IMG/VR virus record: IMGVR_UViG_2571042372_000005
Reading direction: 5' to 3' (one strand)
DNA length: 16,037 nucleotides
Source of the DNA: a virus
Lineage: Duplodnaviria > Heunggongvirae > Uroviricota > Caudoviricetes
Shown here: piece by piece, positions 1,579-16,037 of the stretch
Position numbering within the stretch: position 1 is the stretch's first letter
Layout: each line of letters begins with the position of its first letter
The notes under the pieces: generated by a model
What the model was told of the DNA's origin: nothing
Database searches by the model: none
The model's input: the letters and a program-made list of their open reading frames with translations, nothing else
Made by a program: the position numbers and the translations under genes

Positions 1579-1692
1579 GTTACCCTCCACGCAAACAACT
1601 CTTTTCGAATACAAAAGATAGCAAAGTGAGTATATCTAGTCAAAATTTTTTTGCATACACTTTGCTATCAAATTGAATACCAAAGGTGTTAT
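1579..1692. promoter_or_regulatory. Divergent arc-ant / mnt control region with a 12-bp perfect inverted repeat
   Basis: GATAGCAAAGTG (1617..1628) and CACTTTGCTATC (1658..1669) separated by 29 bp; TTGACT -35-like hexamer on the - strand at 1638..1643; TTGCAT at 1650..1655 on the + strand. Confidence 0.5.
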
Positions 1693-1941
1693 ATGGCAAA
1701 GGGTGTGTCAATTTCTCCAACTACGGTAAGAATCCCTGAATCTTTACGCGAGGCTCTTGCTGTCAGAGCATCAAAAAATGGTCGCTCTGTTAACTCCGAG
1801 ATCGTCATGATTTTGCAAGCCGCGATTGATGAAGATAGGTCGCCAAAGTCAGTTGAGTCATTTGCTCAGCAAGAAGCTGATAAATTCAAAGAGGCGCTAC
1901 TTGAGACGCTAAAGACCATGTATGCTAAGGATGAAAAATAA
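1693..1941 (+). CDS. mnt: Mnt-like ribbon-helix-helix repressor (82 aa)
   Basis: VRIPESLREALAVRASKNGRSVNSEIVMILQAAI matches the Mnt/Arc RHH core (NGRS-NSE); C-terminus ...LKTMYAKDEK resembles P22 Mnt as recalled; divergent from arc. Confidence 0.75.
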   Translation: MAKGVSISPTTVRIPESLREALAVRASKNGRSVNSEIVMILQAAIDEDRSPKSVESFAQQEADKFKEALLETLKTMYAKDEK

Positions 1942-2477
1942 TGCTGCACACAATTCATTTCTTATGCCCTGTTAACACTGCCACTGTTGGGCAACTTCAG
2001 AACCACTGTCTCACCGCATTATCTCAAGGCGCAACTGAATTAAATATCCATATATCAAGTCAGGGAGGGGAAACTGCTGCTGGCTTTACTGCGTATAACT
2101 TTCTTAAGTCACTCCCTGTTACCGTTAGAACTCACAACATAAGCAATGTTGAATCCATAGCTAATATCGTTTTCCTGGCTGGCTCAGAACGTTTCGCAAA
2201 CCCATTATCAAGATTCCTGTTACATCCTCTATTATGGTGCTTTGCCTCCCCAGCCGCCGACCATGCCAGATTGAGAGAGTACGGGAAATGCCTCGATAAC
2301 GATCTTGATCGCTTCGTTGAGACGTTCAATATCGACATCGGAACCCATATTAGGTGGGCATCCCTGATAGCAGACTCGACCATTTTGGATGCTAACAAGG
2401 CTCTTGAGCATGGCATAATTAATTCCATAAAAACTGCAAGGCTGGCATCCAATCAGGCAAACTGGTGGGTTGTTTGA
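1941..2477 (+). CDS. ClpP-fold (S14/S49-like) serine peptidase homologue lacking the ClpP N-terminal region
   Basis: By-eye alignment to E. coli ClpP: IHISSQGGETAAGFTAY vs INSPGGVITAGMSIY; VESIAN Ser aligns with the GQAASMG catalytic Ser; RF-NPLSRFLLHP vs RFCLPNSRVMIHQP keeps the His; a later Asp (ADSTILD) is a candidate third residue. Start ATG overlaps the mnt stop (TAATG). Confidence 0.6.
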   Translation: MLHTIHFLCPVNTATVGQLQNHCLTALSQGATELNIHISSQGGETAAGFTAYNFLKSLPVTVRTHNISNVESIANIVFLAGSERFANPLSRFLLHPLLWCFASPAADHARLREYGKCLDNDLDRFVETFNIDIGTHIRWASLIADSTILDANKALEHGIINSIKTARLASNQANWWVV

Positions 2478-2503
2478 TGGGTAAATCATGATTACTCCTT
2501 ATA

Positions 2504-2527
2504 AAAAACCCACCTGACGGTGGGTTT
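2504..2527. terminator. Intrinsic terminator between convergent genes (possibly bidirectional)
   Basis: AAAAACCCACC-tgac-GGTGGGTTT hairpin; on the - strand it follows the 2526 stop and is followed by a T-run. Confidence 0.7.
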
Positions 2528-2975
2528 AGTCAAACATAGTGTTTCTAAAGTCTCTCGCATACCCTGCTAACACTCTCATTCTATTATGATTGTTAGCAGA
2601 CATGTGAGCTACAGGATGAAAAAGAGCAATCAATGAATACCTGTTCTCATCAAAAAGATTTTGTGCATAAACGAGAGCGGTATTGGATGTTTTATGCCAC
2701 TGCAACTTTTGCGGTGTGCTGATATCTGTGCCATTTTTTATTGGCTCAAATTTATTTTCACCAATTGCTAAATGAAGGTGCATAAGGCCTGCATCTTCAA
2801 TATCAGGAGGTCGATGATAAGAGGTGTCTCTGCCAAAATAGCTGGGCAACGTTCCCGTAGACTTGTAGATGATAAAATCATCTACAAGTGTTTGTTTTAA
2901 ATCAGGAAACTCAACAAAAACCGGGGAGAAAAAATAGTCAAAACTATCCTGATTATATTCCACGGTTACTTGCAT
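2526..2975 (-). CDS. yafO: YafO-family toxin homologue (149 aa)
   Basis: Matches E. coli YafO as recalled: DFIIYKSTGTLPSYFGRD vs DFISYKRDGVLPDIFGRD; HLHLAIGEN vs HIHLANENN; ALVYAQNLFDE...LIALFHPVAHMSANNHNRM vs HLVYCQGAFDE...LIAILKPEPHKLARDNNQM. GAGG SD; starts 8 nt after the upstream stop. Confidence 0.65.
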   Translation of the reverse strand: MQVTVEYNQDSFDYFFSPVFVEFPDLKQTLVDDFIIYKSTGTLPSYFGRDTSYHRPPDIEDAGLMHLHLAIGENKFEPIKNGTDISTPQKLQWHKTSNTALVYAQNLFDENRYSLIALFHPVAHMSANNHNRMRVLAGYARDFRNTMFD

Positions 2976-2983
2976 GTTTTACC

Positions 2984-3550
2984 TCAGTGGAAGTTACCAG
3001 AGTGAAACACACGAGTCCCGTGCTCAGCAAGCGCACGCAAACCAGCCATATCTACGGAACTATCAAAAACAACCGGAACACATGAGCGTTGTTTAATAAG
3101 ACTATTCAGGTTGGTTACGGCAGATCTGGCATCAGCAACAACGATATAGATATCTCTTGCGATCTCTTTAAAATCAGCAGAAGCTTCTTTGAATACCGAT
3201 TTCATTGCCCCTTCAAGTCCTCTCAATTGATGCTCTATCAATCGAGACTTTTCTGGTTCAATGATAGACAACACATTGTCTACATTCTCATCGGTAGCGT
3301 TTGCAAGAACACGATAAGCGTATTTCAGCATTCGAGACAATTCTTTAATCGAAGACACCGCCTCATGAAGCTCATCATTAGCCCGTTCACTGCTGAATGA
3401 GGATTGATGGTAAGCGTGCTGAACGTTATCAGTAACAACCACCTCACAACTGAACGCAGAAGCTTGCTGTAATAGCAAACCTATTGCGACTCCAGCTTTG
3501 GCAGCGTTCAAGCTAAACATTTCATCAATCCCATTAGTCTCATTGCTCAT
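2984..3550 (-). CDS. Hypothetical 188-aa protein encoded immediately upstream of the YafO-like toxin; putative non-canonical antitoxin/partner
   Basis: AAGGAGG SD before the ATG at 3550 (the ORF-track start at 3580 lacks an SD); no RHH/HTH or YafN/Phd-like motif recognisable; same operon as the toxin. Confidence 0.5.
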   Translation of the reverse strand: MSNETNGIDEMFSLNAAKAGVAIGLLLQQASAFSCEVVVTDNVQHAYHQSSFSSERANDELHEAVSSIKELSRMLKYAYRVLANATDENVDNVLSIIEPEKSRLIEHQLRGLEGAMKSVFKEASADFKEIARDIYIVVADARSAVTNLNSLIKQRSCVPVVFDSSVDMAGLRALAEHGTRVFHSGNFH

Positions 3551-3725
3551 ACAAACCTCCTTCTTATCGGAGATTATCAATAGCTATGCATCCATTGAAT
3601 ACACGCTATGCGCAATAAGTTTACGTCACGTGATATCATTATGCAACCACCGTTCTATCACCGACTAACTTTACTCCCACTCCTATACATCATCTGGTAT
3701 CCTGCGCAAAACTAAGGAGGTTGGT

Positions 3726-4076
3726 GTGAATGCTCAGTCTGTCATCATGGTTTTCCTTGGGCTGATTGTCGCAAAACTATATCCAGACTGGTGGAAAGGG
3801 GCATTAGCTACTGTCGCCATCTATTTGCTTTTATCCATCGTTAAGCGATCACTCGCTGAGACCGTAAATCAAGCAAAACGTTTCTCATTTAAGAGTTTAA
3901 TAAACTATGTTACTGGGCTTATTTTTTGCCTTTCAATTCTGATCGCTTCGGCTTTTTTGCCCGTATCAATAGCTAATTTTTTTGGCGCACCATATGAGGT
4001 AGGTTATCTATTCTCTGTTTCCTGTCTTGCCATTGCTCTTCTTTACCTGTGGACGAGATCAAAGAATAAAAATTAG
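3726..4076 (+). CDS. Small integral membrane protein (116 aa, 3-4 predicted TM helices); GTG start
   Basis: AAGGAGG (3714..3720) 5 nt before GTG at 3726; hydrophobic stretches VIMVFLGLIVAKL, ATVAIYLLLSIV, LIFCLSILIASAFLPV, YLFSVSCLAIALLYLW; sits at the P22 sieA-equivalent position. Confidence 0.6.
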   Translation: MNAQSVIMVFLGLIVAKLYPDWWKGALATVAIYLLLSIVKRSLAETVNQAKRFSFKSLINYVTGLIFCLSILIASAFLPVSIANFFGAPYEVGYLFSVSCLAIALLYLWTRSKNKN

Positions 4077-4093
4077 CCATCCGTGGCTGCCAG

Positions 4094-5239
4094 TTATTGA
4101 GCTTCTTTTTGTGATGCCTGTGCGACTCTGGTGAGCGATTGTGTGACCGTACTGATCGCTCTGTCATATGCTGTGCTACCTTTTGGCGTATTTGCCAGAC
4201 GTAACAAGGCATTTCGTATAACAGGGCTTTCGTATGCCTTCGCAGCTCCTCCTACGACACCAGCAGCAGGAACAACAAACGCAGCCGTTTTTAGCATCCC
4301 CGCTAATACTGCTGCGTTTATGATGCCACCACCAACTAACAATCCATAAAGCTGCTGACCATTTAAGTTTTGAACGTTCGCTTTTGCCGCGTGTCTTGTA
4401 TCGTTGAGGTATTTAATAACGCCGTCCAGTTCCTTTCCATGTACGCCTTTAAAGAAAGTTGCTGATTGCTTCCTGTTCCGGTGTAACGCATTAATAAACT
4501 TTTCAACACTAATATTTCCAGACGGATCAGTCGCCTTATCTACAGCATTCTGAACTATGGCTGCTCGTGCGTTTTGCCTACCATTGTCATCCAGAAGCCT
4601 GTAAAGCTGAGAACGTTCTGATGGGTTTTGGCTAAAAACGAGTTTTGTTACATCCTCAGGTGTAGCCTTGCCGCTGGCTATTGCCTTTTGAACGCGCGTT
4701 CTTCCCATCATGTCATTGAATCTAGCCCATGAGCGATCAACCCTAGACATATTGGCAGCTTCTTCTGAGCCTAGTTTTTGGGATACTGCTTTTTTCATAT
4801 CCGCTGTATATGCCTTGTAGACAATATCGCTGGCTTTCTGGAGCGTGTCTTTATCAACAGTCTCGTTTGAATTCATGAACCGCTTTCGAAGGTCAGTTCT
4901 GTTTTCTCTCGCCAGACGCAGGTCATTGGGTCCGCTGGTGATATCGTCTTTAAATTGCTGCAAGACTTTTACCGCGGCTCTATCCTGAGATTTGCCCGGG
5001 CGGCTTAACACGGCAATCTGATTGTCGATAGCTTTTACCGTGTTTGAGAGATCGACAGGGGTATCCCCCATAGCGTCAATTATGCGGTTATATCGCTTTC
5101 CTGCTGCCTCAATGAATTTTTGTTGCCCTTTAGTCGCAGATTCATAAAGCTGTTTATCAGAAATGCCACCCAGACCATCGCTAAATGTTCTGACTAAATT
5201 TTCTCGTGCTTGTTGTTGATTCAGCCGATTCTTACCGGT
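4094..5239 (-). CDS. 5'-truncated phage structural-type protein, possibly an ejection/internal virion protein; N-terminus replaced by IS629 copy B
   Basis: The reading frame is open from the IS junction at 5239 down to the stop at 4094, beyond the first ATG at 5071; C-terminal hydrophobic Gly/Ala-rich segment. Function is inferred from position only. Confidence 0.4.
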   Translation of the reverse strand, partial: TGKNRLNQQQARENLVRTFSDGLGGISDKQLYESATKGQQKFIEAAGKRYNRIIDAMGDTPVDLSNTVKAIDNQIAVLSRPGKSQDRAAVKVLQQFKDDITSGPNDLRLARENRTDLRKRFMNSNETVDKDTLQKASDIVYKAYTADMKKAVSQKLGSEEAANMSRVDRSWARFNDMMGRTRVQKAIASGKATPEDVTKLVFSQNPSERSQLYRLLDDNGRQNARAAIVQNAVDKATDPSGNISVEKFINALHRNRKQSATFFKGVHGKELDGVIKYLNDTRHAAKANVQNLNGQQLYGLLVGGGIINAAVLAGMLKTAAFVVPAAGVVGGAAKAYESPVIRNALLRLANTPKGSTAYDRAISTVTQSLTRVAQASQKEAQ

Positions 5240-5265
5240 TGAACCGCCCCGGGTTTCCTGGAGAG
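5240..5265. repeat. IS629 terminal inverted repeat (orfB-proximal end)
   Basis: TGAACCGCCCCGGGTTTCCTGGAGAG; partner at 6524..6549. Confidence 0.8.
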
Positions 5266-5281
5266 TGTTTTATCTGTGAAC

Positions 5282-6172
5282 TCAGGCTGCCAGATCATCG
5301 TTTCCGATGGAAGCATAATAAGCTTTTTCTGCTTCTGCCGGAGGAGTATGGCCCAGCCTTTCCAGCAATCGTCGATTGTTATACCAGTCCACCCACGTGA
5401 GTGTGGCCAGTTCCACTTCTGCACGGTTTTTCCAGCTCTTACGGTGTATTACCTCCGCTTTGTAAAGACCATTGATGCTCTCCGCCATCGCGTTGTCATA
5501 CGAGTCGCCTGTACTTCCTGTTGATGCCAGTAATCCGGCTTCCTTAAGCCGCTGTGTGTAGGCCAGCGATACATACTGAGAACCTTTATCACTGTGATGG
5601 ACCGTGCCGGACGGTCGACGGGCCCATAACGCCTGCTCCAGTGCATCCAGCACGAATGTCGTTTCCATGGACGATGAGACCCGCCACCCCACGATGTATC
5701 CGGCAAACACATCAATGATGAACGCCACATAGACGAAGCCCCGCCATGTGCTGACGTAAGTAAAATCAGCCACCCACAGCTGGTCAGGTCGTTCTGCCAC
5801 GAACTGACGGTTTACGCGGTCGCCTGCGGCAACGGCTTTCCGGCTGATGGTCGTACGGACCTTTTTACCCCGGAGAACACCGGCAAGTCCCATAACCGCC
5901 ATGAGACGTGCCACAGTGCATCTGGCCACTCTGATACCTTCCCGTAACAACTGACGCCAGACTTTACGCACACCGTATACCTTGTGATTTTCATCGTATA
6001 CGCGCTGTATCTCTTTCTTCAGCCAGTCATCGCGCTGCGCACGGGCACTGCGTTTATCCGGATGATGTCGCTGTTGCTGACAGTGGTAATACGTTGACGG
6101 GGCAATATGCAGTTCGCTGCATAGCGGTCCGACCCCGTACTGCTCACGCAGCTTATCCAGCAGTGGCATCAT
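5282..6172 (-). CDS. IS629 OrfB transposase (DDE integrase core)
   Basis: 296-aa ORF in the -1 frame relative to orfA; IS3-family catalytic-core-like sequence ([10 protein letters not shown]...[15 protein letters not shown]). Confidence 0.9.
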
Positions 6173-6495
6173 TTTTTCCAGAGGCGGTCGAACTCCGCCT
6201 TCGCAAAATAAGCGGAAGCCTGGCGAAGGATATCGTTACTGCGGCGCAGTTCACGATTTTCACGTTCCAGCTCTTTCAGACGCTGACGTTCAGCGGTGGT
6301 GAGCCCTCCATCACCGCCCCCGGTATCCCGCTCATGCTGGCGAACCCAGACACGCAGAGTCTCCGGCGTACAGCCAATCTTTGGAGCAATGGAACAAATT
6401 GTCGCCCATTGTGAGTCATATTCGCTCTGACTTTCCAGAACCATACGGACTGCCCGTTGACGGACTTCGGGGGAAAAACGAGTATTTTTAGTCAT
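6169..6495 (-). CDS. IS629 OrfA (HTH/leucine-zipper transposase N-terminal protein)
   Basis: 108 aa, [21 protein letters not shown]...; ends in the A-run GGAAAAAATGA that overlaps the orfB start, the usual site of -1 frameshifting in this family. Confidence 0.9.
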
Positions 6496-6523
6496 CCTGT
6501 TTACCTCTTTCTCAGGAAGTTTA

Positions 6524-6549
6524 GTCTCCAGGATTCCCGGGGCGGTTCA
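6524..6549. repeat. IS629 terminal inverted repeat (orfA-proximal end)
   Basis: Reverse complement reads TGAACCGCCCCGGGAATCCTGGAGAC. Confidence 0.8.
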
Positions 6550-7705
6550 TGATGATTGAGTCTGCGTCCTGTTCAATGCTTCCTGAATCACGCAAATCTG
6601 CGTTTGTCGGGCGTTTGTTTGGTCGCTTCTCAACATCGCGTGAAAGCTGACTCAGGGAAATAACCGGTGTTTTCAGGTCTTTCGCCATCGCCTTCAGGCT
6701 TCCGGAGATGTGAGCAATTGCGAGGTCGTTGCGGTCTGCTTTCGGCTTCTCAATCAGGCCAAGATAATCCGCCATGATGAGTGAGAGGTTTGGATTTTCC
6801 TGTTTGTGCCGTTCTGCGATTGAGCGTATTTCTTCGACCGATAATCGCGAGGCATCGACTACCCATACATCCAAATCTGCAAGCTGACTCATGCCGTTAG
6901 CAACACGTGCCCAGCCCTCGTCATCCATCGATGCAGGATTTCGCAGTACGCTAACCGACATCCTCCCGGCGTTGGCAATGCTTCGCTCTGCAATCTGCAA
7001 TGCGCTCATTTCCATTGAGAAAATCAATACCCCGCGCCGGACGTCAGAACCAGGAATAACGCGGCTTGCAACGCCTTCGGCAATCTTCAGCGCCAGTTCG
7101 GTTTTCCCCATACCAGGACGAGCAGCGATTATCACCAGGTCTTCCGCGTTCATCCCTCCGGTGATGGCATCAAGTTCTTCGATTCCGGTCTTCAGGGTAT
7201 CGGACTCTTCTCCGTTCCTCAGACGCCTGTCAAGCGTGTCAGTGTAGTCGGTGATGATTTCCCCTAACCGTACAGGTTTAACCTCGTCACGGGGCTTTCT
7301 GATGGCTGAGAGACGTTTTACAAGTTCATCCATCGCCTGACTCGATGCGTCGATGGTTCCGCTTTGGATTGGTTCACGCATTTCATCCATGATTTCCAGC
7401 ACCAGACGGCGGTGATAGTTATCCGCGACCATTCCGGCATATCCCTTCAGGTTTGCGGCGCTCGGGCAGTTTTTGCTGGTCATCAGGATTGACGTGAAAT
7501 GCTCCTCTCCGCACGCCTCGGCAACCATCAGCGCGTCGATTAGGTTTCTGTTTCTCGCCTGCTTCCGGATAACCTCGAAGGCTTTCCGGTAGAGCGGAAT
7601 TGAAAACGCTTCCGGCTCCAGCGTTGCAAGAACGTCACTGGCGGTTGGAGTTAATCCACCAATCAGCAGGCCACCGATAACGCTCGCTTCGATATCCTGT
7701 CTCAT
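6550..7705 (-). CDS. DnaB-family replicative helicase (P22 gene-12-like), 3'-truncated by IS629 copy B
   Basis: Walker [12 protein letters not shown]; DnaB C-terminal motifs [36 protein letters not shown], after which the frame runs into the IS inverted repeat; about 45-60 C-terminal residues missing by comparison with E. coli DnaB. Start ATG overlaps the upstream stop (ATGA). Confidence 0.85.
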
Positions 7706-8649
7706 GCAATCCCCCTGTCTGCAAACTTCCCTTCCCGAACTCCCGTTAACGAGTCTTCTCTCAGCAGGTAATCAAAATCAGCCGTCCAGCCCGTGTCGTT
7801 GTCTCCGAAGTAAAACGGCTTGGCCTGATGCACAAACGCCCTGACATACGCTCTGAAACCGTCCACGTTTGGCGTTTTCAGTTGCGGGATGATTTTCTTC
7901 AGGCGGCGTTTTCGTTTCTCGTTGACCGCAACAGCGTGTGGCAGTCTGTCACCGACTTCGGTGTTGTAGGCGTTCAGGAAGGATTCGTAGTCGATTCGTT
8001 CTGCCTTGCGACGTTCAGGTTTAACCTGCCCATCGCCTCCCCCATTGGGGGGTAGGGGGGTATTATTTATATTCTTGTTAATACCTTCTTGTTCATGATG
8101 TGCGGTTGTTTGTGCGGCTTCATGTGCGCTTTCATGTGCGGCATGTACGCTGAAAGCCGCGCTATTGCTGGCTTCATCATGTGCGGCATCATGTGCGGTT
8201 GTTTGTGCGGCTTCATGTGCGGGTAAATTGTCCATTTTTTGAGCATATTCATGGTAATTTGTGATGGTTATCACACGGCCTTTTTGCTTCTCTCCATCAA
8301 TGGAGATCATCCCCTCTTTCACAAAAACCTGAAGCATCCGCTCAACCTGATCACGGCTTGCTGGCTTGCCATGTCTGTCGCATAACTGAAGACCTAAATC
8401 AGCTGCTGTCACAACCAGTTGACCGGGTTGCAGATGCCATTCATGACCTTTGAAATTCGCTTTGTATGGCTTTCTGGCGGCATTCAGGAGAAGGTTTTCC
8501 CACAGGGTGCGAAGATAAACATCTTTCGCCCATGACTGTTTCAGAATGCTCCGGTACAACGGAATGTAACCAGTTTTCTGGTTCTCCATCCTGTTGCTCC
8601 TGCGCTCGTGTGCGGCGCTGAAATCGTAGATTTTTGCTGTATTGCTCAT
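7702..8649 (-). CDS. Replication initiator (lambda O / P22 gene-18-like) containing the origin iterons
   Basis: N-terminus [10 protein letters not shown]... recalls lambda O (MTNTAKILNF...); internal reiterated [10 protein letters not shown] peptide corresponds to DNA iterons; translationally coupled to the helicase. Confidence 0.7.
8055..8222. repeat. Putative phage replication origin: two clusters of 12-bp-period iterons (8094..8222) with an adjacent AT-rich stretch (8055..8093)
   Basis: (C/T)ATGTGCGG repeated about 9 times; a 35-bp unit is near-perfectly duplicated (8094..8128 and 8187..8221); the AT-rich stretch lies downstream in the direction of O transcription, as in lambda ori. Confidence 0.6.
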
Positions 8650-8651
8650 AA

Positions 8652-8924
8652 CTACCTGCCTTGACGAAAGACCTTAAGAACATCGTTAAACTGACTTACG
8701 GATATGTCTTCTTTGAGAAGCTTTTCCAGAAATGCGTTTGGAATGAACGTATATCCCTCCTCTTTTGGTAGAGACGGGAGCAACGCCCTCGCCTCAGCCT
8801 TCAGAAGCTCAGTTCTGGCAACTTTCACAAAAGAGATTTGAGTTCTTTCATCAATGGAACGAAGGAAGCGCAAACGCTTAGCTTCTTTGTGTGTATCAGG
8901 TGGATTAAAGCCTTTGTTTCGCAT
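8652..8924 (-). CDS. Hypothetical protein (90 aa) between cII and the initiator gene
   Basis: ATG at 8924 with GAGG SD; the ORF-track 181-aa version overlaps cII in another frame and is probably an over-extension. Confidence 0.5.
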   Translation of the reverse strand: MRNKGFNPPDTHKEAKRLRFLRSIDERTQISFVKVARTELLKAEARALLPSLPKEEGYTFIPNAFLEKLLKEDISVSQFNDVLKVFRQGR

Positions 8925-8946
8925 ATAATTACCTCGTTGGATGTTG

Positions 8947-9240
8947 TTAAAATTCCATTTGTATTTGATCAGAACGCTCGGTTGCCGCCGGGCGTTTTTT
9001 ATTGGTGAGAATCGAAGCAACTTGTCGTGCCAATCGAGCCATGTCGTCGTCGACAACACCCCATTCAAGAACAGCAAGCAGCATTGAGAACTTTGGAATC
9101 CAGTCCCTCTTCCACCTGCTGATCTGCGACTTATCAACGCCCACAGCTTCCGCTGTCTTCTCAGTTCCAAGCATTGCGATTTTGTTAAGCAACGCACTCT
9201 CGATTCTTAGAGCCTCGTTGCGTTTGTTTGCACGAACCAT
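8947..9240 (-). CDS. cII: Transcriptional activator CII (97 aa), lambda-type
   Basis: MVRANKRNEALRIESALLNKIAMLGTEKTAEAVGVDKSQISRWKRDWIPKF...QIQMEF matches lambda CII as recalled, essentially residue for residue; upstream AAGGAAATACTTACATATG context also lambda-like. Confidence 0.9.
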   Translation of the reverse strand: MVRANKRNEALRIESALLNKIAMLGTEKTAEAVGVDKSQISRWKRDWIPKFSMLLAVLEWGVVDDDMARLARQVASILTNKKRPAATERSDQIQMEF

Positions 9241-9297
9241 ATGTAAGTATTTCCTTAACAAATAAGAAGTTATGCGCATCAACTTATGCGCGTTGTA

Positions 9298-9341
9298 TTC
9301 CCGCATTTCGGCGGGAATGAGGACCATGACTGTTAAAGAGC
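9298..9341 (-). promoter_or_regulatory. nutR (boxA + boxB hairpin)
   Basis: On the - strand: boxA-like GCTCTTTAACA (9331..9341), then boxB hairpin TTCCCGC-cgaaat-GCGGGAA (9298..9317); the same elements recur at nutL. Confidence 0.6.
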
Positions 9342-9348
9342 AATTTGC

Positions 9349-9534
9349 TTATGCCGCTTTGCGGTAAGCGCTTTCTTGATACTTCAGGGCGCCAGCTGTA
9401 ACGACTTCCAGTCGATAGGCGTCTTTCTCTGGGATGACTTCCTTCCACTGAGAGACTGCTGCGTCGCTAATGCCTAACGCTTTAGCTACAGCACGCTGGG
9501 TTCCGAAGTGGTCGATAACATCTTTCTTGTACAT
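9349..9534 (-). CDS. cro: Cro-like HTH repressor (61 aa)
   Basis: HTH QRAVAKALGISDAAVSQW; divergent from cI across an operator region; GGAG SD. Confidence 0.8.
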   Translation of the reverse strand: MYKKDVIDHFGTQRAVAKALGISDAAVSQWKEVIPEKDAYRLEVVTAGALKYQESAYRKAA

Positions 9535-9614
9535 AGACTCGCTCCGAAATTAAAGAACACTTAAATTATCCACTAAAGGAATCTTAAGTCAAGTTTATTT
9601 AAGATGTCTTAACT
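9535..9614. promoter_or_regulatory. oR / pR / pRM divergent control region
   Basis: pR on the - strand: -35 TTGACT (9587..9592), 16-17 bp spacer, -10 GATAAT (9565..9570). Recurrent operator-like motifs with a TTAAG/TTAAAT core (ACTTAAATT, ATCTTAAGT, TTTAAGAT). Confidence 0.6.
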
Positions 9615-10265
9615 ATGAAAACTCAATTGATGGGAGAGCGCATTCGCGCTCGGAGAAAAGAACTCAAGATCAGGCAGGCCGCACTTGGAAAGATGGTCGG
9701 CGTGTCTAATGTTGCCATATCTCAGTGGGAACGCTCTGAGACAGAGCCAAATGGAGAGAATCTTCTCGCCCTGGCTAATGCGTTGAAGTGTTCCCCTGAC
9801 TATCTGATGAAAGGAGAGGAAAGTCTTTCAAACATTGCCTATCACAGTAGGCATGATCCAAGAGGGTCATACCCTCTGATTAGCTGGGTGAGCGCAGGAT
9901 GCTGGATGGAAGCTGTAGAACCATATCATAAGCGTGCAATAGATAACTGGTACGATACAACCGTAGACTGTTCAGAAGATTCGTTTTGGTTGGACGTGAA
10001 GGGAGACTCAATGACGGCTCCGGCCGGTCTCAGTATCCCTGAAGGAATGATAATACTCGTCGATCCTGAAGTAGAGCCGCGTAACGGGAAACTGGTAGTT
10101 GCAAAGCTCGAAGGAGAAAACGAGGCAACTTTCAAGAAGTTAGTTATTGATGCAGGCAGGAAGTTTCTAAAACCACTTAACCCACAATATCCGATGATCG
10201 AGATCAACGGAAACTGCAAAATCATCGGCGTAGTTGTCGATGCAAAACTAGCAAACCTTCCATAA
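9615..10265 (+). CDS. cI: CI-type prophage repressor (HTH_XRE N-terminal domain + S24 LexA-like autopeptidase domain)
   Basis: HTH LKIRQAALGKMVGVSNVAISQWE; S24 Ser in GDSM and Lys in KKLV; 216 aa. Confidence 0.9.
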   Translation: MKTQLMGERIRARRKELKIRQAALGKMVGVSNVAISQWERSETEPNGENLLALANALKCSPDYLMKGEESLSNIAYHSRHDPRGSYPLISWVSAGCWMEAVEPYHKRAIDNWYDTTVDCSEDSFWLDVKGDSMTAPAGLSIPEGMIILVDPEVEPRNGKLVVAKLEGENEATFKKLVIDAGRKFLKPLNPQYPMIEINGNCKIIGVVVDAKLANLP

Positions 10266-10290
10266 GGGGGCATTCGCCCCTTTTTTTTTA
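10264..10290 (+). terminator. Intrinsic terminator after cI
   Basis: GGGGC-attc-GCCCC followed by T9. Confidence 0.85.
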
Positions 10291-10299
10291 TTTCCTTTA

Positions 10300-10392
10300 A
10301 AAATCAAAGCCAAACTTAAGTTACGAAAGAAAATTTAAGTTTTCTTCAAAAATGCTCTTGACCATTAATTAAAGAGATCTTAAATTTAAGCC
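10300..10392 (+). promoter_or_regulatory. pL promoter with oL operator repeats
   Basis: -35 TTGACC (10358..10363), 17-bp spacer, -10 TAAATT (10381..10386); operator-like AACTTAAGTT, AATTTAAGTT and ATCTTAAATTTAAG share the core seen at oR. Confidence 0.6.
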
Positions 10393-10432
10393 ATCAGCAG
10401 GACGCTGGAAGCCAAACGGAACAGATTGGCAG

Positions 10433-10476
10433 GCTCTTTAACATTGATGGGATTGTCCCGCCGAAATGCGGGAACC
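10433..10476 (+). promoter_or_regulatory. nutL (boxA + boxB hairpin)
   Basis: boxA-like GCTCTTTAACA (10433..10443), 12-nt spacer, boxB hairpin TCCCGC-cgaaat-GCGGGA (10456..10473), identical to the nutR boxB. Confidence 0.6.
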
Positions 10477-10786
10477 AAAGAGTAGTTGGCTTTGGGGTGA
10501 CGTGAAGTGCAGCTGCACGACGGCAACCGGAAGATAAGCACCCGGCGCGTCACCGCCAAAGTCAATTCCATAGGCGTTATGCAGCCGCCACCATATTCAA
10601 GAAAGCTGCACAAGAGGTAGGAGGATTTATGTGAATGCATAACTTCAAAACCGAGGTTAATTAAATCTCTCGATCCGAGCATCGACCTATTAGGTGGCGA
10701 GATGCTCTTTCTGCCCCTCAGTTCGAGGGGCCAGAAACCACTTTGCAATCACTATCAATTCCAAAGTTGTTTCATCGGAGGTCAAC

Positions 10787-11086
10787 ATGACAGTAGTCAT
10801 TACATATCTGGCTGACGATAACGCCAGAAATCGCCGCAGAGCACGCAGACAGGCTCAACGTGAACAGGCGATGCAAGAACAGCGACTGGCGCGAAAAATT
10901 GCGCTAAAGCTCTCTGGTTGCGTCAGAGCGGATAAAGCAGCATCACTCGGAATCCTTCGCTGCAAGAAGGCAGATGAAGTCGAGAGTAAACAGAATCGTA
11001 TTTACTACCGCAAGCCACGCAGTGAAATGGGTGTGACTTGTGTTGGTCGCCAGAAAATGAAATTAGGCAGCAAACCACTTATTTGA
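10787..11086 (+). CDS. N: N-type transcription antiterminator (99 aa)
   Basis: Arg-rich motif DNARNRRRARRQAQREQ near the N-terminus; C-terminus YYRKPRSEMGVTCVGRQKMKLGSKPLI resembles lambda N (YSKPGERGITCSGRQKIKGKSIPLI); GGAGG SD before the ATG at 10787. Confidence 0.85.
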   Translation: MTVVITYLADDNARNRRRARRQAQREQAMQEQRLARKIALKLSGCVRADKAASLGILRCKKADEVESKQNRIYYRKPRSEMGVTCVGRQKMKLGSKPLI

Positions 11087-11094
11087 GGTGATAT

Positions 11095-11565
11095 ATGACA
11101 AAATCATGGAGCGTACCTTTTCCTGAATCAGAAACTGAACATGATGGAATGCCTGTTTTCTGGAGATTCCAAGCGACAGTTGAAGAAGATGGAATCAAAA
11201 TATTCGCACTTCAATATATAGCTTTTCATCAGACAGAGCATTATGCATGGTTGGTTCCTGCGCATTGGATTGTTAATTTTAAACCAGCACCAAATCAGTG
11301 GTTACAGGAATGGAAACAAAGGAGAAATAGATATGCAATTAAGAAAGTAGCAAAAAATGCAGAAAGATCTTTTGCATTCCCGACGAAGAAACTTGCCATT
11401 GAAAGTTTATTGCGCCGGAAGAAATACCATTTGATGAGAATCAAACAAGATTTGGCTGTTGTATCAACTCTTGTTGATGGGATGAAGAATATTGATACAT
11501 CAACACCAGGTATTGAATATAACTTTGGACACAACCAAGAAACAGAAAACTGGGTGTTTTATTAG
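11095..11565 (+). CDS. Hypothetical protein (156 aa), AT-rich insert between N and the tL terminator
   Basis: GAGGTG SD 5 nt before the ATG; base composition visibly more AT-rich than flanking phage genes; no recognisable motif. Confidence 0.5.
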   Translation: MTKSWSVPFPESETEHDGMPVFWRFQATVEEDGIKIFALQYIAFHQTEHYAWLVPAHWIVNFKPAPNQWLQEWKQRRNRYAIKKVAKNAERSFAFPTKKLAIESLLRRKKYHLMRIKQDLAVVSTLVDGMKNIDTSTPGIEYNFGHNQETENWVFY

Positions 11566-11669
11566 TACGAATAAGCACTGTGTATTCATTCCAACGAGTG
11601 AATACACGGAGCAATGTCGCTCGTAACTAAACAGGAGCCGACTTGTTCTGATTATTGGAAATCTTCTTT

Positions 11670-11695
11670 GCCCTCCAGTGTGAGGGCTTTTTTAT
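11670..11695 (+). terminator. Intrinsic terminator (tL1-like)
   Basis: GCCCTC-cagtgt-GAGGGC followed by TTTTTTAT. Confidence 0.8.
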
Positions 11696-11759
11696 ATGCA
11701 TACCAATAACGCTTCACTCGAGGCGTTTTCGTTATGCAATCAAACAGAAGGAGCATCCT

Positions 11760-11930
11760 ATGCAACAGTTCGCTATTGCAGGGGCGGCATCGGTTCGCCC
11801 TTTCAACCCGATTTTATCGGTACAGCATTCACGAAAAAACATTTTAACCGGAGCAGACTTTAAACAACCAAGAATGAAAAGCTTGCTCGAAAAGCTTTGG
11901 GATATTTTGAAACAACAAGGCCGTCCATGA
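11760..11930 (+). CDS. cIII: CIII-like small protein (56 aa; putative FtsH inhibitor)
   Basis: MQQFAIAG... and ...SLLEKLWDILKQQGRP resemble lambda CIII as recalled (MQYAIAG...LIDILNQPGVP); AGGAG SD. Confidence 0.55.
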   Translation: MQQFAIAGAASVRPFNPILSVQHSRKNILTGADFKQPRMKSLLEKLWDILKQQGRP

Positions 11931-12085
11931 GTTTTACGGATAACTGGTCAGACGAAGAATTCATTCGTCAGATAAAAGAATTAATCGGTAACGAAGGAGA
12001 TATTCATGTCACTTGCAACCACAGTGAAGGAGAGCAAGTTACAGAGACGCATGTACACGCAGAAAGCTCTCTGGTATCGCCATAA
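11927..12085 (+). CDS. Hypothetical small protein (52 aa)
   Basis: ATGA start/stop overlap with the cIII-like gene; sits at the kil-equivalent position; no homology recognised. Confidence 0.35.
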   Translation: MSFTDNWSDEEFIRQIKELIGNEGDIHVTCNHSEGEQVTETHVHAESSLVSP

Positions 12086-12186
12086 TGGTGACCGCGAAGG
12101 AATGCGGGTATGCCTTAATTTGTCCCGAGTCGAAGTATTAAATCAGCGTTATTTCCTTGGGCCGTGTCCATTCTGAGAGCAATCAT

Positions 12187-12792
12187 ATGAGCAAAGAATT
12201 TTACGCAAGACTGGCAGCTATTCAGGAGAATCTGAACGCGCCAAAGAATCAGTACAACTCATTCGGCAAATATAAATACAGAAGCTGCGAAGATATTCTT
12301 GAAGGCGTTAAGCCGTTACTGAACGGTCTGTTTTTATCAATCAGCGATGAAGTTGTGTTGATTGGTGATCGGTATTACGTGAAAGCCACGGCAACTATTA
12401 CCGATGGCGAAAACAGTCATACGGCAACCGCTCTTGCACGAGAGGAAGAAAGCAAGAAAGGAATGGATTCTGCACAAGTTACGGGAGCTACAAGCTCTTA
12501 TGCACGCAAGTATTGCCTCAATGGTTTGTTCGGCATTGATGATGCGAAAGATGCAGATACAGACGAGCATAAACATCAGCAGAACGCAGCAGCAAAGCAA
12601 TCAAAACCATCACTTACACCTGAACAGGTTCTAAAAGCATTCACTGACGCAGCAATGCAGAAAAACACCGTAGAAGAGCTTAAACAGGCGTTCGCCAAAG
12701 CGTGGAAGATGCTCGAAGGGACGCCGGAGCAGCACAAAGCGCAGGACGTTTACAACATCAGACGAGACGAATTAGAAGGGGCAACTGCTTAA
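12187..12792 (+). CDS. erf: Erf-family single-strand annealing recombinase (P22 Erf-like)
   Basis: MSKEFYARLAAIQENLNAPKNQYNSFGKYKYRSCEDILEGVKPLL... matches P22 Erf as recalled. Confidence 0.75.
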   Translation: MSKEFYARLAAIQENLNAPKNQYNSFGKYKYRSCEDILEGVKPLLNGLFLSISDEVVLIGDRYYVKATATITDGENSHTATALAREEESKKGMDSAQVTGATSSYARKYCLNGLFGIDDAKDADTDEHKHQQNAAAKQSKPSLTPEQVLKAFTDAAMQKNTVEELKQAFAKAWKMLEGTPEQHKAQDVYNIRRDELEGATA

Positions 12793-13175
12793 TGGCACAT
12801 TCGATTACAGTAAGACTAAACAAACCCGCAAGAGAGTTTCAGGGCGGGGAAAATATCGGATTCAACATCCGTGCTGGCGTTCAGTATTACGATCGCCAGA
12901 CAAAAAAGAAAGAATGGACAAACTACAGCGCCGTTGTATTTGCCAAGCCGGGAGCGCAAGCGGATTACTATCGTAGCGTTCTGGTTGAAGGAGGCATTGT
13001 AGAAATTACCGGAGAAAACATCAGGGTTGATGTTTATCAGGGGCAAAATGGTCAATCAATCACTCTTGAATTACTGAATGCAAAGATTGGATTTGCAACT
13101 TCAGGAAACAGCCAACAGCAGCAAAGTAGCAATCATCAAAATAATCCTGAATACGACGATTCCATCCCATTCTGA
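12792..13175 (+). CDS. ssb: Single-stranded DNA-binding protein-like (127 aa)
   Basis: C-terminal Gln/Asn-rich linker ending YDDSIPF, the SSB acidic-tip signature (E. coli SSB ends DDDIPF); TAATG overlap with erf. Confidence 0.6.
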   Translation: MAHSITVRLNKPAREFQGGENIGFNIRAGVQYYDRQTKKKEWTNYSAVVFAKPGAQADYYRSVLVEGGIVEITGENIRVDVYQGQNGQSITLELLNAKIGFATSGNSQQQQSSNHQNNPEYDDSIPF

Positions 13176-13198
13176 TTTAGAAAAATAAGGATTTAATT

Positions 13199-13495
13199 AT
13201 GCCAGCGCCTTTGTATGGTGCGGATGACCCGCGCCGCTGTTCCGGCAATTCCGTATCGGAGGTGCTGGATAAATTCAGAAAAAACTACGATCGAATAATG
13301 TCTCTACCGCAGGAAACGAAAGAGGAAAAGGAATTTCGCCACTGTATATGGCTTGCAGAGAAAGAAGAACGCGAGCGAATTTACCAGACATCAATCCGAC
13401 CATTCCGCAAAGCCACATATACCCACTTCCCTGAATATATCGACCCGCGCCTGCGTAATTACCGCTCACGCTATGGCGCTATCAGTAATGACTGA
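13199..13495 (+). CDS. Hypothetical protein (98 aa); the position after the recombination genes suggests an Abc/anti-RecBCD-type accessory gene, but this is unverified
   Basis: AAGGA SD; no motif recognised. Confidence 0.4.
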   Translation: MPAPLYGADDPRRCSGNSVSEVLDKFRKNYDRIMSLPQETKEEKEFRHCIWLAEKEERERIYQTSIRPFRKATYTHFPEYIDPRLRNYRSRYGAISND

Positions 13496-13589
13496 GGAAT
13501 TTACCATGAGAGGACTTGCTTAAGAGAAAGAGTTTCGGTTCTGTTAATGACAACAAATATCTGAATGCGATGTGGCGGAGTGGGAAGAA

Positions 13590-14108
13590 ATGAAACAAAT
13601 GTCACTAATTGAGATGGATGGTTTTCTGAAAGGTAAATGCATCCCAAGTGATTTAAAGGTTAACGAAACAAACGCTGAATACCTTGTCCGTAAGTTCGGT
13701 GAACTTGAATCAAAACTGGAAACGGCGTTGCGGGAGTGTAGTTCTGCTGGAATCACGATTGATAACCTTGAGGCTAAATGCGCGAAGATGGCTGCTGAAA
13801 ATACCTCACTTAAGCAATCTGAGAAGGAATTTAATGACTTTTGTCGTGAGGAGTTTAGCGAATGGGAAGATGATGTTACTGAAACCCCAGCCACCGATGC
13901 TTTTCTGGCTGAAGTGCGGGCGCAGGGGGTGGATGCTGCTATAGAAGCTGCAAAAAATCTGGTGGCCCAAGAATATGAGTATAAGGATTTCAAAGCGGCG
14001 CAGAGTGATTGCTGTATGCACCCTGGTTCAGACCTGGTAGGGAAGGTTGAAATGACTGAGTGGTTAGTTGACTTTGCTGCCCAGCTTCGCAAAGGAGGCA
14101 ACCAGTGA
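13590..14108 (+). CDS. Hypothetical acidic coiled-coil protein (about 172 aa)
   Basis: GGAG 9 nt before the ATG at 13590; an in-frame GTG at 13572 is the alternative start. Confidence 0.45.
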   Translation: MKQMSLIEMDGFLKGKCIPSDLKVNETNAEYLVRKFGELESKLETALRECSSAGITIDNLEAKCAKMAAENTSLKQSEKEFNDFCREEFSEWEDDVTETPATDAFLAEVRAQGVDAAIEAAKNLVAQEYEYKDFKAAQSDCCMHPGSDLVGKVEMTEWLVDFAAQLRKGGNQ

Positions 14109-14404
14109 CTGTATGTCTTATTGATAAACGTCGACGTGGGCAACAAATACCATCTGTTGAAATGCCGAATCACACATGGTTTTGCGTACTTGATATCGAT
14201 GGTATGGATACGTTGGTTGACACTCGTCATTACTGCGATACCGCAACAGCTACTCCGGCGAAAGCAAAGAAAATGGCTGCTCTGATAGAAAACTGGACTC
14301 CACCTGATGGTTGGTGCAATGGGAATGATCGAGATTGGCACGAAAAAATGAAGGGCTATATCTGCGATTTTTTACGTAAATGCAACGGCTTCAGGGGGAT
14401 GTGA
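14105..14404 (+). CDS. Hypothetical protein (99 aa), GTG start
   Basis: AAGGAGG SD 6 nt before GTG at 14105; GTGA overlap with the upstream stop. Confidence 0.45.
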   Translation: MTVCLIDKRRRGQQIPSVEMPNHTWFCVLDIDGMDTLVDTRHYCDTATATPAKAKKMAALIENWTPPDGWCNGNDRDWHEKMKGYICDFLRKCNGFRGM

Positions 14405-14405
14405 T

Positions 14406-14978
14406 ATGACCAAAATTAACTATCAGGCACTGCGTGAGGCGGCAGAACGTGCAATTCCGGCAATGGAACGCCTGTTAATGTTGCCAGTTGATGATGATTT
14501 GTTAAGTGAACAGGAACTTAAGGATTACGGTGTGGATATTGATGCGCTCAACGCCTTCAAATTTCTGACCGGACCAGAAACCGTGCTGGCGCTGCTGGAT
14601 GAACGGGAAAGAAACCAGCAATACATCAAACGCCGCGACCAGGAGAACGAGGAAATTGCGCTAACGGTAGGGAAGCTGCGCGTTGAGCTGGAAGCTGCAG
14701 AGAAGCGCATTGCAGAACTGGAAGCCGAACCTGTAAGCCAAACTTACAAGTTGAACGAGCTGTCGGGCAACTATCCGGTAACTCCGGATGGTTGGATAAG
14801 CTGTAGTGAGCGAATGCCCGCTCAAGATGATTGGATTTTAATTTATTCAAAGCACGGCGAGTATATGGCAGGACAGGTACAAGGGGAATACGTGGAGTTG
14901 AGCGACGGCACTTTATCGTGGTTAGGGAACGCCTTGTACTGGATGCCTCTACCGGAACCGCCGCAGGAGGTTAATTGA
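14406..14978 (+). CDS. Ea22/Ead-like protein with a C-terminal DUF551-type domain
   Basis: Coiled-coil N-terminal half (LRVELEAAEKRIAELEAE); C-terminal ...WISCSERMPAQDDWILIYS...LSWLGNALYWMPLPEPP resembles DUF551 as recalled. Confidence 0.5.
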   Translation: MTKINYQALREAAERAIPAMERLLMLPVDDDLLSEQELKDYGVDIDALNAFKFLTGPETVLALLDERERNQQYIKRRDQENEEIALTVGKLRVELEAAEKRIAELEAEPVSQTYKLNELSGNYPVTPDGWISCSERMPAQDDWILIYSKHGEYMAGQVQGEYVELSDGTLSWLGNALYWMPLPEPPQEVN

Positions 14979-15262
14979 TGGTCTCCTTCGCGAAATATAC
15001 GATTATTGACTGGATAGCATTCATTCAGGTTTTGCTCATCTGGTTTTATATGGCTTACAGGAGTGGACAGTGGATTGTCAGTGTAGCCTGTAGCAATGGA
15101 TGGCGTTGGTGGAACCGAAAGAATAAAAAAGCGCTGGCCTTGGCTTCGTTTTACGAAGCATTCAATCTTAACAGTCTTCAGCCTGGTTTTGTCGTTGTAG
15201 TCACCACTCAAAGCGGCATGACGATACAAATTCACAAGCCAAAGGAGGAAGGTCGTGGCTAA
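14978..15262 (+). CDS. Hypothetical small membrane protein (94 aa)
   Basis: AGGAGG 7 nt before the ATG; hydrophobic N-terminus YTIIDWIAFIQVLLIWFYMAY. Confidence 0.45.
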   Translation: MVSFAKYTIIDWIAFIQVLLIWFYMAYRSGQWIVSVACSNGWRWWNRKNKKALALASFYEAFNLNSLQPGFVVVVTTQSGMTIQIHKPKEEGRG

Positions 15263-15539
15263 CCTGCAACTTGCCGTTAAAGGTGAATACTTCGATGCCA
15301 TGATTCGCGGAGAGAAAACGGAAGAGTATCGCCTGTGTAATGACTACTGGAATAAGCGAATTATGTTCCGCGAGTATGACCGCCTGATTATCACAAAGGG
15401 ATATCCGAAGCGCGACGATTCCAGCCGCAGAATTGACGTCCCGTATGACGGATATGAAATCAAGACAATCACACATCCGCACTTCGGCGATAAACCGGTA
15501 AAGGTGTTCGCTATAAAGGTGAATATCGACAATGAATGA
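15255..15539 (+). CDS. Hypothetical protein, possibly ASCH/PUA-like (DUF3850-type); GTG start
   Basis: AAGGAGGAAGG before GTG at 15255; motifs GEYFDAMIRGEKTEEYR and YDRLIITKGY recall ASCH-domain phage proteins. Weak. Confidence 0.35.
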   Translation: MANLQLAVKGEYFDAMIRGEKTEEYRLCNDYWNKRIMFREYDRLIITKGYPKRDDSSRRIDVPYDGYEIKTITHPHFGDKPVKVFAIKVNIDNE

Positions 15540-15611
15540 TAATCCTCGCACTCGCGGGGATTTCTTTTATCTGAACTCGCTACGGCGGGTTTTGTTTTAT
15601 GGAGATGATAA

Positions 15612-15779
15612 ATGCACTTCCGAGTCACAGGTGAATGGAATGGAGAGCCATTCAACAGAGTTATCGAAGCAGAGAACATCAACGACTGCTATGACCACTG
15701 GATGCTGTGGGCGCAGATAGCACATGCAGACGTAACTAATATTCGAATTGAAGAACTGAAAGAACACCAAGCCGCCTGA
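15612..15779 (+). CDS. Hypothetical small protein (55 aa), not in the supplied ORF track because it is under 60 aa
   Basis: GGAG SD 7 nt before ATG at 15612; the TGA stop lies inside the terminator hairpin at 15768..15792; preferred over the overlapping 15532..15720 ORF. Confidence 0.4.
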   Translation: MHFRVTGEWNGEPFNRVIEAENINDCYDHWMLWAQIAHADVTNIRIEELKEHQAA

Positions 15780-15792
15780 TGGCGGTTTTTTA
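15768..15792 (+). terminator. Intrinsic terminator
   Basis: AAGCCGCC-tgat-GGCGGTT followed by TTTTTTAT. Confidence 0.65.
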
Positions 15793-15836
15793 TTGCCTGA
15801 TTTGCAGGTTCGATTCCCTATTCGGAGATAGCACTC

Positions 15837-16037
15837 ATGCAACACGAACTACAACCTGATTCACTGGTTGATTTGAAATTCATCATGGCCGATACTGGCT
15901 TCGGTAAAACCTTCATCTATGACCGGATTAAGTCCGGCGACCTGCCAAAAGCCAAAGTTATCCACGGGCGAGCAAGATGGTTATATCGTGACCATTGTGA
16001 ATTCAAAAATAAGCTCTTAAGCCGCGCCAATGGGTAA
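15837..16037 (+). CDS. xis: AlpA/Xis-like winged-helix DNA-binding protein (putative excisionase)
   Basis: ...DLKFIMADTGFGKTFIYDRIKSGDLPKAKVIHGRARWLYRDHCEF resembles AlpA/excisionase HTH; last gene of the pL operon, where xis precedes int in lambdoid phages. Confidence 0.55.
   Translation: MQHELQPDSLVDLKFIMADTGFGKTFIYDRIKSGDLPKAKVIHGRARWLYRDHCEFKNKLLSRANG

Follow-up and report, generated by a model that had tools for sequence, protein, structure and literature searches.

A small membrane-protein gene in the sieA slot of a degraded CUS-3-type prophage as a candidate entry-exclusion factor

We analysed a 16,037-nt stretch of caudoviricete virus DNA (IMG/VR virus record IMGVR_UViG_2571042372_000005; the whole stretch is referred to as the window), which is a degraded CUS-3-type (P22-like) Escherichia coli prophage, with a focus on orf116, the gene for a predicted 116-amino-acid (aa) polytopic membrane protein. 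The open reading frame (ORF) list, hydropathy, substitution rates and homologues place its coding sequence at 3726..4076 on the plus strand, with a GTG start and a TAG stop, and the Shine-Dalgarno sequence AAGGAGG is read directly upstream at 3714..3720 (+), with a 5-nt spacer to the GTG at 3726. On one side, an operon for a 188-aa protein and a YafO-like toxin is transcribed divergently on the minus strand. Its 188-aa gene begins with the ATG at 3550 (-) and has its own AAGGAGG upstream, and since orf116 begins at 3726, the intergenic region comprises the 175 bp from 3551 to 3725. On the other side, the 3' part (325 codons) of gene 16, encoding a CUS-3-type DNA-ejection protein, converges on orf116 from 4094..5071 (-), its upstream part being cut by an IS3-family element. 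An earlier note on this DNA had described the 116-aa ORF with its GTG, strong Shine-Dalgarno sequence, divergent orientation and 175-bp intergenic region, all of which are indeed present. It had further placed the ORF at the position of sieA, the superinfection-exclusion gene of phage P22, and had considered that the protein might either act in exclusion or be tied functionally to the two toxin-operon genes.

The ORF and its GTG start lie far beyond chance expectation and orf116 is a real gene under purifying selection. The ratio of nonsynonymous to synonymous substitution rates (dN/dS, Nei-Gojobori) is 0.11-0.14 against the Yersinia homologue at a dS of about 1.3 and 0.3-0.5 in closer pairs, and orf116 stayed intact in the window despite the destruction of virion genes by insertion sequences (ISs). 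Homologues are few, with 19 clusters at 90% identity, and a profile search of 1.84 billion proteins returned only orf116-like proteins, with 7 representatives at 50% identity. They nevertheless bear out the conservation that the earlier note had asked about, since they occur in several genera (Escherichia, Salmonella, Edwardsiella and Yersinia) as well as in metagenomes, with identities of 35-99% (87% for the Edwardsiella copy, 71% for the Yersinia copy and 35-39% for metagenomic relatives). A tblastn search of 50,697 phage records gave no homologue in isolated phages, CUS-3 evidently lying outside that collection, and a scan of GTDB species representatives gave none either. Invariant positions are concentrated in helix 1 and the following turn (V15, K17, L18, Y19 and P20), with further ones at F53, Y61, G64, L65, F67, P79, L108 and R111. 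The annotation by RefSeq and the Prokaryotic Genome Annotation Pipeline sets the start at the downstream ATG at 3747, which yields a protein of 109 aa. The GTG at 3726 is the better-supported start, since the N-terminus MN(A/G)Q(x)(V/I)I is kept in ATG-starting relatives of 35-39% identity, homology between alternative alleles extends precisely to the equivalent of this GTG, and in at least 119 viral-contig stretches with the same 22-nt leader the ORF begins at the corresponding GTG. The GGAGG core of the ribosome-binding site is likewise kept in the homologues from Yersinia, Edwardsiella and locus L022.

The position of orf116 is equivalent to that of sieA, as the earlier note had proposed; the comparison with P22 yields a shared leader, a shared GTG, a shared hairpin and an exchange of the coding sequence with that of a SieA homologue. 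SieA types A, B and C have been described by Leavitt et al. (2024, PMC10883804). In P22, the stop codon of sieA (164 aa) lies 22 bp from that of the convergent gene 16, and in the window the stop codons of orf116 and gene 16 lie 17 bp apart in the same arrangement. orf116 shares the location by which the SieA family is recognised, convergent with gene 16 in the interval from the gene 16 homologue to the gene 9 homologue of a P22-like prophage. The likeness extends to the nucleotide level. The 'sieA leader' TGGTATCCTGCGCAAAACTAAGGAGGTTGGTGTG at 3695..3728 (+), which ends in the start codon, matches the stretch up to and including the GTG of P22 sieA at 33 of 34 positions, and the leader of the type-B sieA of HS1 aligns with it too. 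It occurs once in the window, where 0 matches are expected by chance. Its upstream end at 3695..3703 (+), TGGTATCCT, resembles an extended -10 element (TGn + TATCCT). It is not part of the 22-nt pattern used for the search, yet all 13 representative upstream sequences have it, and divergence sets in immediately upstream. This suggests that TGGTATCCT is the extended -10 promoter core of the slot; a consensus promoter scan gave no canonical sigma-70 -35/-10 pair for orf116 on the plus strand.

At the other end, the hairpin AGCCA-TCCG-TGGCT at 4075..4088 overlaps the orf116 stop codon, lies between the convergent stops and forms the 3' boundary of the slot. It was called as terminator-like on the minus strand, with the exact motif GCCATCCGTGGC at 4076-4087. 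Homologous hairpins are found after P22 sieA and in Yersinia (both GCCGTCCTTGGC), in L022 (ACCATCCATGGT) and also in L024 and L026. More generally, a short GC hairpin of the form [G/A/T]CC[A/G/T]TCCNTGG[C/A] stands at the stop codon of many slot ORFs (window 4075-4088; L018 7951-7975; L049, L074). It may serve as a terminator, as an element that stabilises RNA or as an anchor for recombination.

In E. coli islands that are collinear outside the gene, a true SieA homologue or a secreted 132-aa protein can take the place of orf116, the coding sequence being exchanged exactly between start and stop codon. Among 5,426 complete genomes, 405 have the C-terminal part of the CUS-3-type gene 16, 227 have orf116 and 102 have a 204-aa gene instead. 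The loci of I2 (L020, with orf116) and MDR_56 (L021, with the 204-aa gene) are collinear as far as GGGTTGGTGTGA, and collinearity returns at the stop codon and hairpin. Their identity extends through ...GCTAAAGGGAGGGTTGGTGTGA, is lost at the second codon and is regained at TAG/TAA followed by GCCATCCATGGCTAACC. Comparison with the SieA profile by hhalign (97%, E 3.5e-11) identifies the 204-aa protein as a SieA homologue; it is 34% identical to HS1 SieA over 118 residues and has NRYPGEA. In D72 and CREC-591 (L028/L029, 2540-2938), a third allele encodes the 132-aa protein WP_001426179 behind the same leader with GTG AAT, and its N-terminus resembles a Sec-type signal peptide (…LLFASFGANA/EC…). 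This protein is related to a 129-aa family, which is the second commonest cargo among the viral-contig matches listed.

Gene 16, and not the toxin pair, is the constant companion of orf116. In the E. coli chromosome S88 and in 14 IMG/VR loci, orf116 always lies 17-25 bp from the stop codon of a convergent CUS-3-type gene 16, and the Yersinia, Edwardsiella and metagenomic loci have a convergent gene 16 of the CUS-3 clade too, whose C-terminal part is 60-79% identical, versus about 30% for gp16 of P22 or HS1. In every locus examined, orf116 was found only beside a gene 16 of this clade, even where orf116 itself is reduced to 35% identity. The pair of the 188-aa protein and the YafO-like toxin, on the other hand, stands beside orf116 in 6 of 15 E. 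coli and viral loci (L001-L005, L015), and is absent beside it in L006, where a P63C-domain gene takes its place, and in L007, L008-L014, L018-L020, L022, L024, L026 and L027, the Yersinia, Edwardsiella and metagenomic loci included. With the pair missing from most orf116 loci and gene 16 always present, the functional link to the toxins that had been considered earlier is not upheld.

The three to four hydrophobic helices of the earlier description agree with hydropathy and modelling. Kyte-Doolittle windows of 19 residues give three segments at or above 1.6 (26-44, 65-83 and 92-110) and an N-terminal one at 1.57, and AlphaFold2 places four helices at 3-18, 23-49, 55-85 and 90-115, with a low predicted local distance difference test (pLDDT) score of 57-64 in two runs of 6 and 10 sequences. 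A Foldseek search of these models against BFVD returned nothing below E 0.39. Because of the low pLDDT and the lack of a match, we make no claim based on the fold. Scans against Pfam, PHROGs, NCBIfam and PADLOC gave sub-threshold noise alone, and 0 families of PADLOC-DB 2.0 match orf116 at E ≤ 0.1. Since P22 SieA itself has no PADLOC model, this library does not cover superinfection-exclusion (Sie) proteins. GtrA-like flippases are prophage-borne proteins of about 120 aa with four transmembrane helices as well, but no GtrA match to orf116 was obtained at E ≤ 1 and no gtrB or gtrC lies next to it.

We propose a model in which orf116 is an independently expressed prophage 'moron' gene of the sieA slot, whose product would act as a non-homologous analogue of SieA and block phage entry at the inner membrane, a proposal to which we assign about even confidence. 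An exclusion role is the best-supported reading, because orf116 shares the leader, start and hairpin of P22 sieA and is exchanged as a coding sequence with a SieA homologue. It draws on positional, regulatory and allelic equivalence with SieA, on the constant partner gene 16 and on the envelope bias of the slot cargo. The superinfection-exclusion factor of the earlier note can thus be retained as a sequence-based proposal, outside the SieA family. From these comparisons we infer expression in the lysogen, topology, exclusion activity, target and promoter. In the proposed mechanism, orf116 would be transcribed against the late operon from its short leader (TGGTATCCT, AAGGAGG, GTG), and the protein would insert into the inner membrane with roughly four helices, its basic loop 40-57 and C-terminal tail facing the cytoplasm and the invariant KLYPD(W)W turn facing the periplasm. 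There it would protect the lysogen by blocking the delivery of incoming phage DNA, and its likeliest target would be the gp7/gp20/gp16 ejection-protein conduit of P22-like phages, as for SieA. For SieA, an inner-membrane protein, the gene alone with 85 bp of upstream DNA is enough for exclusion, and escape mutations lie in the C-terminal regions of gp16 and gp20 (PMC10883804).

P22 SieA and orf116 have in common their place between genes 16 and 9, convergent with gene 16, a near-identical leader, ribosome-binding site and GTG, a similar 3' hairpin, and a build, predicted for orf116, in which a small protein crosses the membrane several times and has a basic loop and tail in the cytoplasm. They differ in size (116 aa versus 162-212 aa); unlike SieA, orf116 has neither the long cytoplasmic segment nor the motif FxRYPxEAxxFNK and is seen only with a CUS-3-clade gene 16. 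T4 Imm and HK97 gp15 are further short membrane proteins of phages and prophages, of the moron type, that are thought to block DNA translocation across the inner membrane. orf116 has no match in Pfam, PHROGs or PADLOC, and these proteins differ from it in phage group, helix number and genomic setting. Of all the genes in the slot, only sieA has a function assigned to it. If the proposal holds, orf116, being unrelated and half the size of SieA, would offer a second, independent handle on inner-membrane crossing by P22-like phages, and its escape mutants could be mapped onto CUS-3-type gp16 and gp20. Such genes would also shape which temperate or therapeutic podophages infect K1 or extraintestinal pathogenic E. 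coli (ExPEC) and avian pathogenic E. coli (APEC), in which the prophage is common.

The slot itself appears to take up more than these three alleles. When IMG/VR was scanned with the final 22 nt of the leader, at least 119 stretches matched (L030-L148), and among the viral-contig matches listed, the ORFs that begin at the leader GTG fall into at least 12 unrelated families of 62-164 aa, which include SieA, orf116, N-terminally anchored coiled-coil proteins, secreted proteins and peptides with two transmembrane helices. Nine of these at least 12 listed families have a hydrophobic 19-mer at or above 1.6, and in two more the N-terminus, judged by eye, is hydrophobic or resembles a signal peptide. 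Most of the listed ORFs are convergent with a gene 16 of P22, HS1 or CUS-3 type, and the hairpin, with a G-C or T-A outer pair, follows 7 of the 12 listed families. One 62-aa family is a candidate for, and probably is, the 'orf62' of phage L/ST64T. The leader is also present in 73 records of isolated phages, including P22 (at sieA), HK620 (at the hkcB/hkcC junction) and epsilon34 (at gene 14). In Yersinia, units are stacked in the order of a leader-like sequence, a secreted 108-aa ORF, the hairpin, a Shine-Dalgarno sequence and orf116; the junction after the 108-aa ORF reads TAG-CCTTCCATGG-CTATCTGGAGGTTGATGTG, the last GTG of which is the orf116 start. The same junction precedes a different short hydrophobic ORF in L049 and L074, as checked by hand. 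Stacked arrays follow a common pattern of the hairpin, then CTATCTGGAGGTT(G/A)AT(G/A)TG, then the second ORF.

We therefore put forward, tentatively and as somewhat more doubtful than probable, that the sieA locus of P22-like phages and of satellite-like islands with ejection genes is a hot spot of cassette exchange. A leader of about 35 nt and a 3' hairpin would bracket at least 12 unrelated ORFs of 62-204 aa, nearly all of them membrane or periplasmic proteins. SieA would simply be the cargo that has been characterised, and orf116 and the others would form a reservoir of so far undescribed entry-exclusion proteins. orf116 itself would found a new Sie family, inherited together with the CUS-3-type channel protein gp16 and perhaps matched to it. 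The constant leader with its variable ORF would then be a simple sequence key to further candidate entry blockers in prophages. Rapid flux of genes in the surrounding 'ant moron' of P22-like phages is already documented (Villafane et al. 2008, PMC2629481), and CUS-3, UTI-1 and APEC-1 share a six-gene type of it of unknown function (PMC2629481; PMC8022706), of which orf116 is one of the six predicted genes (PMC2629481). The published account concerns gene content, whereas the present analysis adds the constant leader and start with swapped coding sequences, the hairpin as 3' boundary and the allelic relation to sieA. In the literature searched, we found no description of orf116 itself or of this architecture.

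Several points weigh against an exclusion role. It should be noted that the same position as sieA is no proof of the same function, and the ant moron holds genes of different functions (PMC2629481). Profile and sequence searches detected no homology of orf116 to SieA or to any characterised exclusion protein, the AlphaFold2 models are of low confidence and the fold search was empty. Upstream of orf116 there is no conserved counterpart of the putative PsieA that is annotated at -31 to -61 in P22, and the orf116 promoter is a candidate deduced from the leader. The linkage to gene 16 may merely reflect adjacency. Finally, one listed cargo family, of 140 aa, appears soluble.

Function in the host rather than in phage exclusion has to be weighed first among the alternatives. 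orf116 could be an envelope moron that promotes host fitness (membrane stress, serum or colonisation in K1/ExPEC) and is carried where insertions are tolerated. This would fit its frequent occurrence in sequence type 95 (ST95)/K1 ExPEC and APEC genomes, the lack of homology to any defence protein and the location in the ant moron, the genes of which are of unknown and probably non-identical function (PMC2629481). We nevertheless consider such a role unlikely, since orf116 is exchanged exactly with a SieA homologue under identical signals and occurs in several genera and in satellite-like islands, always by ejection-protein genes and with no particular pathotype. Moreover, the cargo of the slot consists of short envelope proteins typical of entry blockers.

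A small and very hydrophobic protein could also be a membrane-damaging abortive-infection or holin-like effector that is silent or harmless until infection, and genes for abortive-infection (Abi) proteins lie nearby in the islands. A weak match to Pfam Phage_holin_3_6 (E 0.065, 13.7 bits) points the same way but lies far below the cut-off of 28.4; no PHROG match was obtained and the fold search gave no significant holin. orf116 does not reside in a lysis cassette; in the S88 annotation it is placed between gene 16 and the immI region, away from the lysis genes. The strong, constitutive-looking ribosome-binding site and the absence of a co-travelling regulator likewise speak against an effector of this kind, which we regard as improbable.

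Lower still we rate the chance that orf116 is a true SieA homologue after all, strongly diverged or shortened and now devoid of the C-terminal cytoplasmic motif. Slot and flanks are the same, the C-terminal halves have a similar loop-transmembrane-turn-transmembrane-tail layout, and BLASTP and hhalign pick the same weak stretch, residues 51-87 of orf116 versus 67-111 of SieA, with 'FS-x5-N' before a transmembrane helix. However, BLASTP against P22 SieA gave an E value of 0.29, and hhalign of the orf116 alignment against that of SieA types A and B a probability of 1.1%. With the third SieA type, the 204-aa allele, added, the score of 15.6 lay within 300 column shuffles (mean about 13, standard deviation 2.6, maximum 20-24), and remote homology through the 'FS-x5-N' stretch was rejected on this control. 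SieA was not among the matches when the 1.84 billion representatives were searched with the orf116 profile. The C-terminal cytoplasmic motif of SieA types A-C, FxRYPxEAxxFNK (PMC10883804), is invariant in the SieA alignment (F145, R147, Y148, P149, E151, A152, F155, N156 and K157) and absent from orf116, the C-terminus of which reads ...LLYLWTRSKNKN, without RYPxEA. In addition, homology between the alleles ends exactly at the start and stop codons. The Pfam scan is no test of SieA membership, since PF26849 was outside the Pfam set used and P22 SieA itself gave 0 matches. orf116 is not a member of the SieA family, and its proposed role is that of a non-homologous analogue.

The strict linkage to the CUS-3-clade gene 16, and the co-divergence with it, would also be expected if orf116 were a protector or assembly partner of the pore-forming gp16 in the phage's own lytic cycle. 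A gene 16 of 95% identity is, however, paired with the 204-aa SieA or the secreted 132-aa protein instead of orf116, P22 hybrids with only the CUS-3 genes 7, 20 and 16 are viable (PMC10883804), and orf116 is transcribed antisense to the late operon, which makes such a partnership very improbable.

That orf116 is an accessory of the YafO-like toxin-antitoxin operon, co-regulated through the 175-bp intergenic region, can hardly be maintained: the divergent layout and the palindrome of the window suggest it, and it is contradicted by context, as the pair is missing in most loci, homology across contexts reaches only about 36 nt upstream of the GTG and the palindrome is not above chance. The palindrome, TCACGTGA at 3626-3633, is overlapped by TGATATCA at 3631-3638 and does lie between the hexamers TTGCAT (3647-3642) and TAAACT (3623-3618) of the minus strand, as had been noted earlier (plus-strand ATGCAA at 3642-3647 and AGTTTA at 3618-3623; 18-bp spacer). 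Yet a palindrome of 8 bp turns up one or more times in 47% of shuffled versions of the 175 bp, with a window mean of 0.53 per 175 bp, and the hexamers match the consensus at 3 of 6 and 4 of 6 positions and were not called by the promoter scan. In the DNA alignment of the different contexts, shared sequence starts about 36 nt upstream of the GTG (~3690), and the region of the palindrome is common only to loci with the toxin pair (the window type and L005, where the putative -10 reads TAGAAT and the palindrome is retained). Palindrome and minus-strand hexamers therefore belong to the toxin module, the upstream region of which comprises 3551..3690 (-) and holds the palindromes and weak hexamers. 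Being outside the block conserved across contexts and not above chance, the palindrome was rejected as an operator of orf116. The overlapping palindromes TCACGTGA and TGATATCA are kept in L005 though nearby bases differ; they could be an operator of the toxin operon and are statistically unremarkable. In this operon (window 2526-3550, -), the place before the YafO-family toxin (PF13957, E 3e-22) is taken not by a YafN-type antitoxin but by the 188-aa protein, which has no Pfam family (phrog_8416) and is possibly a non-canonical antitoxin.

Regarding the wider prophage, the window is 100% identical from 2400 to 5200 to K1/ExPEC/APEC chromosomes such as S88 and APEC O1. In S88, the counterpart region is part of an intact P22-like prophage at tRNA-Arg/intS, with the order tailspike, Ant, two Arc-family genes, ClpP-like, YafO-family toxin, 188-aa protein, small hypothetical, gp16, gp20, gp7 and head genes, and RefSeq annotates its gene 16 as 'P22-gp16 family phage DNA ejection protein'. 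Two IS3-family copies lie in the window, at 1-386 and about 5100-6500. The internal copy fuses the truncated gene 16 (5071) with a truncated dnaB-like helicase gene (6521-7705), and the IS-linked deletion removes all head, tail, lysis and nin genes. The defective prophage still has immC, immI, the toxin pair, the ClpP-like gene and orf116, and its exact arrangement is common to only about three complete genomes. Its ant moron contains, at 1651-2477 (+), a 96-aa Arc/Mnt-like gene (PF03869) and a 178-aa gene for a ClpP-family protease (PF00574, E 2e-11), the stop of the first overlapping the start of the second, an unusual pair that is truncated or absent in some related loci (L005, L007).

Outside prophages of this kind, sieA-slot genes are carried by satellite-like islands, namely L027 (E. 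coli KOr019, NZ_CP091665) at 8264-24851, L019 (Edwardsiella) at 2663-16022, L020/L021 and L014. They contain integrase remnants, AlpA, PerC, Abi, a TOPRIM-DUF927 primase, a TerS-like gene and SSB, and carry homologues of P22 ejection-protein genes (DUF2824/gp14-like, gp7, gp20 and a 701-aa gp16) besides the slot gene, without capsid, portal or tailspike genes. These islands may be satellites that bring ejection proteins of their own; alternatively, the remnants of a prophage may have fused with a different element.

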